Shown: in pieces, positions 1-5,558 of the stretch
Layout of the letters: each line of letters starts with the position of its first letter
Position numbering within the stretch: position 1 is the first letter of the stretch
Virus record (IMG/VR): IMGVR_UViG_2671180921_000028
Coordinates: 1 to 5,558 of that record
Reading direction: 5' to 3' (one strand)
From: a virus
Lineage: Duplodnaviria > Heunggongvirae > Uroviricota > Caudoviricetes
Length of the DNA: 5,558 bases
The notes under the pieces: model-generated
Databases searched by the model: none
The model's input: only the letters and a program-made list of their open reading frames with translations
Told to the model about the DNA's origin: nothing
Made by a program: the position numbers and the translations under genes

Positions 1-489
1 ATGAAACAAATGTCACTAATTGAGATGGATGGTTTTCTGAAAGGTAAATGCATCCCACGAGATTTAAAGGTTAACGAAACAAACGCTGAATATCTGGTGC
101 GTAAATTTGCTGAAGCGGAGGCCAAGATTTCGGCTCTGTCCGAAGACCACCAGAAAGCGATTGAGTCAATTAAGCAGGCTGATTCGGCTGTTAAGTTGGC
201 ACACGAGAAGTTTTCAGCGCTGGCGGCGGAGAATGCTGGGCTGAAACACGCAATGGCTGTAACCCTTGAGCATGTGTCGGTCACGGATGCAGGGCAGGCA
301 GGAGTTGCTGCAATGATTATCAATGATGCCCTGTACCACAGCGAAACCCCAGCCACCGACGCTTTCCTGGCTGAAGTGCGTGCGCAGGGGGTGGAGATGA
401 TGCGCGAACATCCATCAATCAAACTTTGCTCTTTGACGCACATATGTGACGAGTTCGCCGCCCAGCTTCGCAAAGGAGGCAACCAGTGA
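1..489 (+). CDS. Hypothetical prophage early-region protein, coiled-coil rich; may be 5'-truncated by the window edge
   Basis: 162-aa ORF from the track. Its stop TGA (487-489) overlaps the GTG start of the next ORF (GTGA), and the downstream RBS GGAGG lies inside its 3' end. No family recognised. Confidence 0.5.
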   Translation: MKQMSLIEMDGFLKGKCIPRDLKVNETNAEYLVRKFAEAEAKISALSEDHQKAIESIKQADSAVKLAHEKFSALAAENAGLKHAMAVTLEHVSVTDAGQAGVAAMIINDALYHSETPATDAFLAEVRAQGVEMMREHPSIKLCSLTHICDEFAAQLRKGGNQ

Positions 490-761
490 GTGAGTCAAAA
501 TGCCAAATTAATGGCAATAAGATAGAACCGTGCGCGGCGTTGACGCAATCCTTGGAGCATGACGCTGAATACACGACGCGAAAAGGTCTGCTGAAATACA
601 AAATCTATAACCATGCATTAATTCATTCACAAGACCTGATCATGCTGCGATCTGGTGAATTTTCTAAATCGCCGATTCGAGTTTCATTTTGCCCGTTCTG
701 TGGTGAAAGTCTGAAAACGTGGGAAGCGGAGGCAACCAGTGAGTGGAAAAAGAATGACTAA
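486..761 (+). CDS. Small Cys4 (zinc-ribbon-like) hypothetical protein
   Basis: 91-aa ORF with GTG start at 486 preceded by GGAGG (475-479, spacing 6). Four Cys arranged C-x9-C ... C-x2-C (CPFCGE). No earlier in-frame ATG. Confidence 0.5.
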   Translation: MSESKCQINGNKIEPCAALTQSLEHDAEYTTRKGLLKYKIYNHALIHSQDLIMLRSGEFSKSPIRVSFCPFCGESLKTWEAEATSEWKKND

Positions 762-963
762 CAGGGAGCTTGTCGATGCCGCGATTAAGCTTGCTGGTGA
801 TTTTTATTCAATGATGGGGTACGCGCATCGCCCTGGATTCAAATATTGGGAATCACCGCATCCGCAAGAGCAACTGGTATTTCAAATGGCCTGCCGTGCT
901 TTTGAGGTTATTCGCGGTTCTGATGTGATGGACGCCGTTGCCGACTTGGAGGATGAAGAGTGA
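739..963 (+). CDS. Small acidic hypothetical phage protein
   Basis: 74-aa ORF with GTG start at 739 preceded by GGAGG (728-732) within the same 18-bp junction sequence as at 475-492. Alternative ATG at 754 has a weaker RBS. Stop TGA 961-963 overlaps the next GTG start. Confidence 0.45.
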   Translation: MSGKRMTNRELVDAAIKLAGDFYSMMGYAHRPGFKYWESPHPQEQLVFQMACRAFEVIRGSDVMDAVADLEDEE

Positions 964-3355: not shown

Positions 3356-3523
3356 ATGCACTTCCGAGTCACAGGTGAATGGAATGGAGAACCATTCAAC
3401 AGAGTTATCGAAGCAGAGGACATCAACGACTGCTATGACCACTGGATGCTATGGGCGCAGATAGCACATGCAGACATAACCAATATTCGAATTGAAGAAC
3501 TGAAAGAACACCAAGCCGCCTGA
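3356..3523 (+). CDS. Unlisted small ORF (55 aa, MHFRVTGEWNGEPFNRVIEAEDINDCYDHWMLWAQIAHADITNIRIEELKEHQAA)
   Basis: ATG 3356 with GGAG (3345-3348, spacing 7), stop TGA 3521-3523. Below the track length cut-off. Sits between the terminators and torI. No family recognised. Confidence 0.4.
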   Translation: MHFRVTGEWNGEPFNRVIEAEDINDCYDHWMLWAQIAHADITNIRIEELKEHQAA

Positions 3524-3535
3524 TGGTGGTTTTTT
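3516..3535 (+). terminator. Weak putative intrinsic terminator
   Basis: CCGCC-tgat-GGTGG (5 bp stem with one G-U pair) followed by TTTTTTATT. Overlaps the stop codon of the 55-aa ORF. Confidence 0.3.
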
Positions 3536-3545
3536 ATTGCCTGAT

Positions 3546-3561
3546 TTGCAGGTTCGATTCC
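3546..3561 (+). other. tRNA-like fragment (T-stem/T-loop, TTGCAGGTTCGATTCC) just upstream of torI
   Basis: Contains the canonical T-arm motif GGTTCGATTCC. From memory it is identical to the argW segment immediately 5' of the att core. No acceptor or anticodon arms are present, so it is not a tRNA gene. Confidence 0.5.
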
Positions 3562-3580
3562 CTATTCGGAGATAGCACTC

Positions 3581-3781
3581 ATGCAACACGAACTACAGCC
3601 TGATTCACTGGTTGATTTGAAATTCATCATGGCCGATACTGGCTTCGGTAAAACCTTCATCTATGACCGGATTAAGTCCGGGGACCTGCCTAAAGCCAAA
3701 GTTATCCACGGGCGAGCAAGATGGTTATATCGTGACCATTGTGAATTCAAAAATAAGCTCTTAAGCCGCGCCAATGGGTAA
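3581..3781 (+). CDS. torI: TorI, excisionase-like recombination directionality factor and Tor response-regulator inhibitor
   Basis: 66-aa ORF recognised as E. coli TorI/AlpA-Xis-type winged-helix protein, with GGAG RBS at 3568-3571. Lies at the att-proximal end of the prophage, as in KplE1. Confidence 0.85.
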   Translation: MQHELQPDSLVDLKFIMADTGFGKTFIYDRIKSGDLPKAKVIHGRARWLYRDHCEFKNKLLSRANG

Positions 3782-3797
3782 AATAGCGGGTAAAATA
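3776..3797 (+). repeat. Direct repeat GGGTAAAATA-gc-GGGTAAAATA overlapping the torI stop codon
   Basis: Two exact 10-nt copies at 3776-3785 and 3788-3797, followed by an A/T-rich tract. Candidate protein-binding sites in the attR arm. Confidence 0.6.
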
Positions 3798-3853
3798 TTT
3801 TTCACATCTAAAAAACACCATTCCAATCAATCCCCTGCCGCTTCAAGTAGATG

Positions 3854-3869
3854 CCTGCAGGGGACACCA
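3854..3869 (+). other. attR core: 16-nt copy of the 3' end of tRNA-Arg(CCU) argW (CCTGCAGGGGACACCA)
   Basis: Matches the 3' T-stem, acceptor 3' strand, discriminator and CCA of argW as recalled. Upstream sequence diverges from the tRNA. Flanked by the inverted repeat CCCCTGC (3832-3838) / GCAGGGG (3857-3863). Confidence 0.7.
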
Positions 3870-4257
3870 GATACCCTTCAAACGAAATCTACCTTCACCC
3901 CGTAAAAGATGGGTTTGGCAGCACACTTGCCTTATATCTACTCATTTTTACTGCAACAGGTTGAAATCTCAGCACTGTCAGAAAGCGCTGATGACTAAAC
4001 AGCCCTGGGCCGGGCGATGTAACCATCACACAGAATCCTGATAGCGAAATATGGCGTGACTCGATACTTCACTCCGCAATGCATTCCTTGATGAATTCGC
4101 AGGACCGTGATACACGGGACAGGTCACTGAATGACGACAATGTCCTGGAAATCAGCGAACCGCGCATCTGAAGTACATTTGAGCGACTGTACCAGAACAT
4201 GAATGAGGCGTTTGGATTAGGCGATTATTAGCAGGGCTAAGCATTTTACTATTATTA

Positions 4258-4301
4258 TTTTCCGGTTGAGGGATATAGAGCTATCGACAACAACCGGAAA
4301 A
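4258..4301. repeat. Perfect 11-bp inverted repeat (TTTTCCGGTTG ... CAACCGGAAAA) with a 22-nt loop, just 3' of cscB
   Basis: Arms at 4258-4268 and 4291-4301. Lies 10-50 nt beyond the cscB stop on the minus strand. No clean U-run on either strand, so it is not a canonical intrinsic terminator. Confidence 0.5.
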
Positions 4302-4310
4302 AGTTTACGT

Positions 4311-5558
4311 CTATATTGCTGAAGGTACAGGCGTTTCCATAACTATTTGCTCGCGTTTTTTACTCAAGAAGAAAATGCCAAATAGCAACATCAGGCAGAC
4401 AATACCCGAAATTGCGAAGAAAACTGTCTGGTAGCCTGCGTGGTCAAAGAGTATCCCAGTCGGCGTTGAAAGCAGCACAATCCCAAGCGAACTGGCAATT
4501 TGAAAACCAATCAGAAAGATCGTCGACGACAGGCGCTTATCAAAGTTTGCCACGCTGTATTTGAAGACGGATATGACACAAAGTGGAACCTCAATGGCAT
4601 GTAACAACTTCACTAATGAAATAATCCAGGGGTTAACGAACAGCGCGCAGGAAAGGATACGCAACGCCATAATCACAACTCCGATAAGTAATGCATTTTT
4701 TGGCCCTACCCGATTCACAAAGAAAGGAATAATCGCCATGCACAGCGCTTCGAGTACCACCTGGAATGAGTTGAGATAACCATACAGGCGCGTTCCTACA
4801 TCGTGTGATTCGAATAAACCTGCATAAAAGACAGGAAAAAGTTGTTGATCAAAAATGTTATAGAAAGACCACGTCCCCACAATAAATATGACGAAAACCC
4901 AGAAGTTTCGATCCTTGAAAACTGCGATAAAATCCTCTTTTTTTACCCCTCCCGCATCTGCCGCTACGCACTGGTGATCCTTATCTTTAAAACGCATGTT
5001 GATCATCATAAATACAGCGCCAAATAGCGAGACCAACCAGAAGTTGATATGGGGACTGATACTAAAAAATATGCCGGCAAAGAACGCGCCAATAGCATAG
5101 CCAAAAGATCCCCAGGCGCGCGCTGTTCCATATTCGAAATGAAAATTTCGCGCCATTTTTTCGGTGAAGCTATCAAGCAAACCGCATCCCGCCAGATACC
5201 CCAAGCCAAAAAATAGCGCCCCCAGAATTAGACCTACAGAAAAATTGCTTTGCAGTAACGGTTCATAAACGTAAATCATAAACGGTCCGGTCAAGACCAG
5301 GATGAAACTCATACACCAGATGAGCGGTTTCTTCAGACCGAGTTTATCCTGAACGATGCCGTAGAACATCATAAATAGAATGCTGGTAAACTGGTTGACC
5401 GAATAAAGTGTACCTAATTCCGTCCCTGTCAACCCTAGATGTCCTTTCAGCCAAATAGCGTATAACGACCACCACAGCGACCAGGAAATAAAAAAGAGAA
5501 ATGAGTAACTGGATGCAAAACGATAGTACGCATTTCTGAATGGAATATTCAGTGCCAT
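4311..5558 (-). CDS. cscB: Sucrose:H+ symporter CscB (oligosaccharide:H+ symporter family of MFS)
   Basis: 415-aa ORF with N-terminus MALNIPFRNAYYRFASSYSFLFF, recognised as CscB. Clear LacY-family motifs (DKLGLKK, FEYGTARAWG, YNIFDQQ, NRVGPKNALL, FKYSVANFDKR). Start codon is the last 3 nt of the window; stop TAG at 4311-4313. Confidence 0.9.
   Translation of the reverse strand: MALNIPFRNAYYRFASSYSFLFFISWSLWWSLYAIWLKGHLGLTGTELGTLYSVNQFTSILFMMFYGIVQDKLGLKKPLIWCMSFILVLTGPFMIYVYEPLLQSNFSVGLILGALFFGLGYLAGCGLLDSFTEKMARNFHFEYGTARAWGSFGYAIGAFFAGIFFSISPHINFWLVSLFGAVFMMINMRFKDKDHQCVAADAGGVKKEDFIAVFKDRNFWVFVIFIVGTWSFYNIFDQQLFPVFYAGLFESHDVGTRLYGYLNSFQVVLEALCMAIIPFFVNRVGPKNALLIGVVIMALRILSCALFVNPWIISLVKLLHAIEVPLCVISVFKYSVANFDKRLSSTIFLIGFQIASSLGIVLLSTPTGILFDHAGYQTVFFAISGIVCLMLLFGIFFLSKKREQIVMETPVPSAI

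Follow-up and report, generated by a model that had tools for sequence, protein, structure and literature searches.

Why should two consecutive gene boundaries of a phage, each standing ahead of a small gene unrelated to the other, carry exactly the same 18 nucleotides? The question is raised by the first 5,558 nucleotides of the IMG/VR virus record IMGVR_UViG_2671180921_000028 (Caudoviricetes), a stretch called the window here, in which the sequence GGAGGCAACCAGTGAGTG, named J in the following, occurs on the plus strand at 475-492 and again at 728-745. These are the sole two matches within the window, with no third one found when up to three mismatches are allowed. The repeat stops at 18 nt without extension on either side, with a copy-to-copy spacing of 253 nt. 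We put the probability that any exact 18-nt repeat arises by chance in 5.5 kb at about 2e-4, and no match to J came up in 200 shuffles of the window that preserved dinucleotides. The repeat is thus as described in the initial annotation, which had pointed to the identical 18-mer at the two gene boundaries. Comparison with relatives makes it probable that J, located in the early-left (ea) operon of HK620/P22-like and other lambdoid phages and found also in P1/P7-like phages, is a conserved and portable junction between genes, which would serve both as a translation signal and as a crossover site.

A junction between genes

Both copies of J contain the Shine-Dalgarno (SD) motif GGAGG, followed by the six nucleotides CAACCA and then by GTG, with an SD spacing within 5-9 nt; across the occurrences of J the GGAGG is usually preceded by an A. 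At copy 1, the open reading frame (ORF) of an eae-like gene, 1-489, ends on TGA 487-489 inside the repeat, and this stop overlaps the downstream start GTG 486 in a GTGA at 486-489, which classes the site as a coupled stop/start junction. The eae-like gene, which is internally mosaic, ends ..RKGGNQ*, and its final 15 nt are the core of J read in frame 1. Copy 2 is atypical. It is read in frame 2 by ORF 486-761, which encodes a zinc-ribbon-type protein (GAG GCA ACC AGT GAG TGG = E A T S E W), and the stop of this ORF, TAA 759-761, lies 20 nt past GTG 739 and overlaps an ATG at 754 (ATGACTAA). GTG 739 opens ORF 739-963 (ORF739), in which ATG 754 is in frame. The products of ORF 486 and ORF739 both begin with MS-, as had been read from the sequence, and BLASTP gave no alignment between them, in keeping with their description as two unrelated small proteins.

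The association of J with gene boundaries extends well beyond the window. J or a variant with at most one mismatch was found about 330 times in related viral contigs, and the GTG at J positions 12-14 is in register with an open downstream ORF in 335 of 337 such cores. The ORFs opened in this way have a median length of 114 aa, only three being shorter than 30 aa, and belong to 12 downstream families. On the other side, 312 of 324 cases have an upstream ORF, 50 aa or longer, whose end falls within J or directly behind it, and the upstream stop lies inside J in 190 of about 330. The initial annotation had suggested looking for the 18-mer at other gene boundaries in relatives, and had named a repeat confined to this genome and detached from gene boundaries as the outcome that would speak against its proposal; the data from relatives show the opposite. 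The unit kept in relatives is a core of 15-16 nt, GGAGGCAACCAGTGA(G), J positions 16-18 being part of the second codon of whichever gene comes next. The 18-bp unit described earlier thus stands as an exact 18/18 identity within the window, with the conserved part shorter than proposed.

The start codon in J is treated differently by different annotators. Homologues of the zinc-ribbon gene begin at the J GTG both in GenBank and in the NCBI Prokaryotic Genome Annotation Pipeline (PGAP), and annotators use it for zinc-ribbon genes, for ead-like genes and for the P7 genes upf87.4/87.6. GenBank phage records likewise start ORF739 homologues at the J GTG (225 nt, 74 aa). The annotated starts of ORF739 homologues are inconsistent across contigs (L410 1769, L411 1653, L074 3591; window 739-756). 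In the allele of ORF739 that lacks J, the start chosen by PGAP precedes the conserved Met by five codons, and the PHROG profile aligns to the ORF739 product from residue 1. GTG 739 is tentatively judged the more likely start over ATG 754. The earlier proposal that J supplies ribosome-binding site, spacer and GTG start is therefore supported for ORF 486, and is plausible, not certain, for ORF739, given that GenBank uses the GTG and PGAP the ATG.

Overlapping stop/start junctions are established sites of coupling by termination and reinitiation. J would act as a signal of this kind, initiating and coupling translation through its SD, its 6-nt spacer and a GTG which in the commonest context overlaps the upstream TGA, so that each small gene of a tightly packed polycistron without internal promoters could initiate beside the end of the preceding gene. 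Junctions across the operon are indeed made of an SD and overlapping start and stop codons, with the same build at 960, 1393, 2722 and 2999; at the first of these, the 3' end of ORF739, GGAGGATGAAGAGTGA, supplies the SD and the GTGA start to the next gene. No promoter-like or terminator-like site was found on the plus strand between 1 and 3280, and a promoter/terminator cassette at J was rejected as a candidate on the same search.

Structural signals are likewise lacking at J. No inverted repeat or dyad symmetry was seen at or around it, no Rfam family was found near it at E <= 1 and no tRNA near it, and the predicted folds of the two copies differ (z = -2.2 for copy 1, z = 0.04 for copy 2), with no common or significant secondary structure for the copies. 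In the predicted fold of copy 1 (466-480), the eae tail GCUUC pairs with the SD GAGGC over 5 bp, including one G-U pair. This weakly suggests an SD-masking hairpin that the upstream ribosome might open; the pairing is absent at copy 2.

Reassortment of genes around J

J stands between many different genes. The exact 18-mer occurs once in each of 73 IMG/VR viral contigs, of which about 70 show it in a comparable phage context. In 596 Gb of species-representative genomes, a scan that calibrates the chance background and does not describe a host distribution, it has 20 matches, all in unrelated high-GC taxa, with about 17 expected at random. A 30-nt J probe matches 256 deposited phages at a coverage of at least 80%, including HK75, HK542, HK620, Sf6, many Shiga toxin (Stx) phages and P1-like phages, and HK620 itself carries J with one mismatch at hkaH/hkaG.

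The pairwise comparison of 213 unique 255-nt contexts of J defines it as an island of identity of 15-22 nt between otherwise unrelated flanks. Both flanks are unrelated in 19,635 context pairs, with a median identity block of 18 nt (interquartile range 16-22); the left flank alone is shared in 1,022 pairs, the right flank alone in 1,003 and both in 238. The edges of the island are sharp, as right-hand breakpoints lie at most 5 nt from the core in 94% of pairs and left-hand breakpoints 0-6 nt upstream of J in 74%. The left edge lies 6-25 nt upstream in eae contexts that share the tail sequence CAGCTTCGCAAA; with this tail the shared homology, extended upstream of copy 1, reaches about 30 nt. 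The flanks fall into 38 left and 27 right classes, which occur in 111 combinations, compared with 38 under complete linkage and 152 +/- 4 under free association; all four combinations are seen for 62 pairs of left classes, and the window's own flank classes have 8-11 partners each. Other junctions behave differently, the ORF739 3' junction having 1 left class and 10 right classes and an alternative 3' junction of the zinc-ribbon gene 2 left classes, each of the two being tied in essence to a single upstream gene. J is unusual among the junctions compared in being attached to many unrelated upstream genes.

These upstream genes do not read J in the same way. Ten upstream families correspond to distinct PHROGs (eae-like, 4030, 874, 3126, 630, 9799, 599, 67, 1578 and 3451), among them the Lar-like PHROG 599 and the DNA methyltransferase PHROG 67, both found upstream of J. 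One further apparent upstream family proved to be an out-of-frame translation, without a PHROG match, when ORF lengths per frame were compared. Upstream genes run over J in frame 1 (..KGGNQ*, the eae type) in 186 cases and in frame 2 (..EATSE..) in 126, and the frame-2 tail follows the downstream partner: EATSE* before the zinc-ribbon gene, EATSEQN* or ERN* before ead-like genes and EATSERKKND* before ORF739. The reading in two frames by unrelated families, with tails that vary with the partner, implies that J is conserved at the nucleotide and not at the protein level. The C-terminal tail of the zinc-ribbon protein in the window, EATSEWKKND, is accordingly translated junction sequence.

Anchoring the comparison inside individual genes gives the same picture from each side. 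J or a variant with at most two mismatches stands ahead of the zinc-ribbon gene in 62 of 62 viral contigs, with the variant GGgGGCAACCAGTGAGTG in P1/P7-like contigs. At the 3' end of this gene, about 55 of 138 contigs have GGAGGCAACCAGTGA, which leads into one or another of several genes, and about 70 have another fixed junction. Of 88 contigs with an ORF739 homologue, 45 have the J-type 5' end, which follows at least seven different upstream ends, and in about 38 the 5' end is not of the J type. An anchor at the eae 3' end is followed by the exact J core in 75 of 151 matches, to which variants with one mismatch are added. A second junction allele, GGAGTGCAGTCATGA (..GVQS*, with an ATGA overlap), follows the eae tail in about 35 contigs (28 of the 151 anchor matches) and, like the J core there, leads into many different genes, in its case 23 right classes. 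Cargo at the position behind eae is thus hypervariable, and no fewer than two alternative linkers serve it.

Spacings of 253 or 256 nt between J copies recur at 44 loci, there are up to four J cores per locus, and at least two further genes, phrog_1578 and phrog_3451, are flanked by J on both sides. In P7 (L075 2002-2272), the same zinc-ribbon gene lies between the J-like copies GGgGaCAACCAGTGAGTG and GGAGGCAACCAGTGAata and is followed by an Ead-like gene; this arrangement sits in the C1-controlled "hea" operon and is also present in P1/P7-like contigs of about 90-100 kb such as L080 and L090. The presence of a J-flanked zinc-ribbon gene in P1/P7-like phage-plasmids implies that J-linked modules are common to lambdoid and P1-like phages, for which one study reported an absence of recent mosaics with each other (PMC3945230).

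The two copies in the window can be compared directly with relatives that lack one of them. The ends of BLAST pieces of relatives cluster at 470-499 and 720-754. In about ten viral contigs and in E. coli CE10, a window-like eae 3' end is joined to ORF739 through a single J; one of these contigs, L208, shares 96% identity with the left flank of copy 1 over its left 70 nt and 99% with the right flank of copy 2 over its right 70 nt. The relatives with a single J, whose flanks are 95-99% identical to those in the window, lack exactly 253 bp, that is, one J and the zinc-ribbon gene, and the exact placement of this unit is ambiguous inside the repeat. Direct J repeats would make such a cassette deletable. 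The second footprint is a change of partner. E. coli STEC383 has the order eae-J-Zn-J-ead and matches the window at 19-20 of 20 positions per 20-nt bin until copy 2 and at 2-8 of 20 thereafter, and contig L410 has the order DUF977-Zn-J-ORF739 and matches at 19-20 of 20 from copy 2 on. Together these matches point to the window as a recombinant with its switch point inside copy 2: its arrangement appears to be eae-J-Zn as in STEC383 up to copy 2, and J-ORF739 as in CE10 and others after it. Among complete E. coli genomes, none has matches over 80% or more of 349-999.

One base of copy 2 is private to the window. The T at 744 (J position 17) is unique to it, a C standing at this position ahead of every ORF739 homologue seen elsewhere, where relatives carry GGAGGCAACCAGTGAGcG (44 viral contigs, 7 phages); a 35-mer with the T was found neither in 5,426 complete E. 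coli genomes nor in the phage records searched. The change is synonymous in ORF739 (AGC to AGT) and turns R into W in the tail of the zinc-ribbon protein. Point mutation is one possible origin and gene conversion over a short patch from copy 1 another, and the 18/18 identity of the two copies owes 2 nt to this T, seen in the window alone.

Origin of the junction and known systems

The mechanism that best fits these observations is an exchange driven by homology. As the sole homology between unrelated flanks, J would be where crossovers between co-resident phages or prophages fall, and each crossover in J would rebuild a working stop, SD and start, leaving recombinants viable and spreading J along with them. 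Likely agents would be phage annealing proteins of the Sak4/Erf/Red type, RecA or, for deletions, replication slippage, and in relatives (HK620, CE10, STEC383) recombination genes for a Sak4-like annealing protein, a single-stranded DNA-binding protein and an anti-RecBCD function lie just upstream. Short conserved flanking sequences are an accepted route of module exchange in lambdoid phages (PMC2327257, PMC3233612), and phage Rad52-like recombinases work on short or diverged homologies (PMC3945230). Of the two roles that the initial annotation had offered for J, a linker for module shuffling is strongly supported by the many upstream and downstream partners, the indel of a single [J + gene] unit and the change of partner inside J.

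Several points weigh against this explanation. The case for crossovers in J is made from comparative footprints, namely the indel and the partner switch, and would be indirect to that extent. The length of J is a difficulty, as about 30 bp is quoted as the minimum for Red-beta, with the 15-18 nt of J below it (PMC3945230), and RecET-type recombination at 5-13 bp reaches only about 1e-8 (PMC2327257). The minimal efficient pairing length of RecA also exceeds 15-18 nt. As J is shorter than the known homology minima, events at J should be rare and visible over evolutionary time, unless the longer eae homology is used. Translation alone would keep about 10 nt of J (SD, GTG and TGA), and shared ancestry is evidenced only by the CAACCA spacer and the flanking bases. 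The association of left and right flanks falls short of random, with 111 combinations against 152, so linkage or selection would still shape flank combinations, and all counts for relatives come from loci collected via J or J-adjacent anchors and do not represent a population sample. As to translation, PGAP places the start of ORF739 homologues at the counterpart of ATG 754 (210 nt, 69 aa), and the strong SD and the GTG of J go unused.

A bolder version would make J a selected mobile cassette for translational coupling and the ea region an integrase-free cassette array, in which the annealing proteins encoded upstream (Sak4/Erf/Red) favour J, J-flanked genes are excised, perhaps as minicircles, and captured across P22-like, lambda-like, Stx and P1/P7-like phages, with T 744 as a possible gene-conversion footprint. 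We consider this version unlikely. Unlikely, too, is that J is kept just as a translation signal and as the C-terminus of eae, its joints being made by illegitimate recombination and then selected at gene boundaries, as in the Juhala/Hendrix model. In favour of this account, some 10 of the 15 bases in the core belong to SD, start or stop, the ORF739 3' junction swaps partners without a shared island (1 left class, 10 right classes), and the literature treats illegitimate joining as a live alternative (PMC3233612, PMC3945230). Such joining would not, however, arrive each time at an identical 6-nt spacer with identical edges, and J is identical behind at least ten unrelated upstream families in two frames. 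The breakpoints moreover coincide with the edges of J, and the indel consists of exactly one repeat and the intervening DNA.

A dedicated system that recognises J, be it integron-like, a nuclease or homing target or a regulator binding site, with the ea region as an active cassette array, would suit the J-flanked single genes in at least three families (zinc-ribbon, phrog_1578 and phrog_3451) and the loci with up to four J cores; start-associated motifs with unknown binding partners also exist in Cluster K mycobacteriophages (PMC3203893). This is nevertheless very improbable, since J has no dyad symmetry, conserved hairpin or Rfam match, no conserved recombinase gene accompanies it, the sole integrase type (IntS-type) uses an unrelated attP, and the register of J with stop and start codons is accounted for by translation. 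The other role first suggested, duplication of a gene start, would here mean a local tandem duplication whose two copies later diverged. Identical 18-mers 253 nt apart, both before small ORFs starting with MS-, might suggest it, but identity between the flanks of the two copies is at the random level (20-24%), no similarity was detected between the downstream proteins, each copy occurs with its own gene separately in many other phages and P7 has the zinc-ribbon gene flanked by J-like copies, which leaves local duplication with next to no credibility. A chance likeness of two strong ribosome-binding sites can be dismissed practically altogether: GGAGG and GTG are generic elements in both copies, but the spacer and flanking bases are identical too, no shuffle reproduced the match, and J turns up some 330 times in one and the same genomic setting, compared with chance level in 596 Gb of unrelated genomes.

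The idea that lambdoid phages exchange DNA by homology at short conserved boundary or "linker" sequences dates from Susskind & Botstein 1978 and Clark et al. 2001 (cited in PMC3233612 and PMC2327257). J is likewise short and conserved between unrelated genes at boundaries, in the same phage group and with reassorted flanks, and differs in being just 15-22 nt long, in holding SD, start and stop and in being read in two frames upstream. Neither the literal core GGAGGCAACCAGTGA nor a description of the junction was found in the searchable full-text literature, a coverage to which Clark et al. 2001 does not belong. Among coupled ATGA/GTGA junctions, copy 1 is a textbook case, with its SD inside the last codons of the upstream gene and, after 6 nt, overlapping start and stop codons (GTGA). 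Ordinary junctions of this type belong to one gene pair each, whereas J joins about 40 upstream to about 29 downstream classes in 111-113 combinations, and the coupling geometry of copy 2 differs, with its upstream stop 20 nt past the GTG.

Three other systems resemble J in part. The PeSL cassettes of T4-type phages (Arbiol et al. 2010, PMC2839356) are small repeated expression signals, which in hyperplastic regions stand on both sides of non-essential ORFs, and recombination between them inserts, deletes and replaces single genes, with minicircles shown physically (PMC2839356). A PeSL is a longer, structured element of a sigma-70 promoter and a stem-loop terminator, whereas J is a translation signal without promoter, terminator or structure and is known here from sequence comparison. 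The start-associated sequences (SAS) of Cluster K mycobacteriophages (Pope et al. 2011, PMC3203893) are asymmetric repeats of about 13 bp with an SD core, a few nucleotides before the start codons of many non-structural genes that are unrelated to one another. They occur in one orientation only, sometimes hold the upstream stop and have been discussed as a translation or binding signal and not as a mosaic joint (PMC3203893). J is like the SAS (consensus GGGATAGGAGCCC) in position and SD content and unlike it in sequence, in phage group and in its enterobacterial hosts, and there are about 10-20 SAS sites per genome compared with 1-4 J copies per locus. Integron cassettes, finally, are likewise single promoter-less genes, each enclosed by a recurring sequence and acquired or lost as a whole. 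Their attC site, however, is an imperfect inverted repeat used by the integron integrase, while J has neither symmetry nor an associated recombinase, and no dedicated integrase was found beside J in the window or its relatives, its neighbours being ea genes and the recombination module.

The linker concept is thus already established, and J is a clean instance of it, not a new kind of element. The debate between homologous exchange at short boundaries and random illegitimate joining followed by selection continues (PMC3945230, PMC3233612), and for the former model J is an unusually clean natural case, with a defined island, more than 100 flank combinations, frame independence and cassette footprints. 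It occurs in well-studied phages (HK620, Sf6, Stx phages and P7) and offers a concrete substrate to measure how short a homology phage recombinases use. For annotation, the J GTG is a recurrent start that gene callers handle inconsistently, and the upstream C-terminal tails (EATSE...) are by-products of the junction and not conserved domains. The conceptual picture is unchanged by J, and its importance is moderate.

Genes around the junctions and the prophage end

The window covers the distal ea operon of a prophage of the HK620 (P22-like) type, and its gene order agrees with the hkaH-to-hkaC arm of HK620. The features at the junctions are collected in Table 1. Searches of Pfam and NCBIfam gave no name for any of the three genes at the junctions, and the PHROGs matched by these genes are function-unknown families only.

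Table 1. Features at and after the two copies of J (positions in the window).
Feature	Position	Strand	Description
eae-like gene	1..489	+	PHROGs 614, 14548, 492, 368; Eae / eae-like in annotation of relatives
Conserved eae-family tail CAGCTTCGCAAA (..QLRK)	463..474	+	commonest 12 nt 5' of J, 72/215 unique contexts
J copy 1	475..492	+	SD GGAGG 475-479, spacer CAACCA 480-485, GTG 486-488; exact match and sequence
[J + zinc-ribbon gene body] unit, 253 bp	475..727 (equivalently 493-745)	+	present/absent between relatives
Zinc-ribbon-type small gene, phrog_4030 (function unknown)	486..761	+	cassette between two J copies
J copy 2	728..745	+	SD 728-732, GTG 739-741; exact match and sequence
Small gene phrog_4132 (function unknown)	739..963	+	start GTG 739 (J) or in-frame ATG 754
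Genes after phrog_4132, in order			Ead/Ea22 (PF13935), phrog_887, DUF551, DUF4752, phrog_625, phrog_676, TorI/excisionase-like

Further observations concern the genes downstream. Inside the Ead/Ea22-like gene, a perfect 15-bp tandem duplication (CAGTAGCAATTGAAA twice, 997-1026) is in frame and repeats five residues. The ends of BLAST pieces of relatives pile up at 990-1000, which indicates a mosaic breakpoint there too. The 251-aa gene at 1393-2148 matches phrog_887, "queuine tRNA-ribosyltransferase" (E 9e-102), and has no Pfam or NCBIfam match; it is a candidate DpdA-like gene for 7-deazaguanine DNA modification in the ea region, and no partner genes for preQ0 synthesis were found within the window.

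The prophage ends within the window. The region 3505-3868 is homologous to the P-int / xis / attP region of HK620, and identity to HK620 ends just after CCTGCAGGGGACACCA (3853-3868), the counterpart of the HK620 attP core. As the attP of HK620 sits between xis and int, the integrase gene should lie at the opposite prophage end. The remaining 3869-5558 is host DNA, in which the minus strand carries a LacY-family oligosaccharide permease of the major facilitator superfamily at 4311-5558, presumably resembling the sucrose permease CscB.

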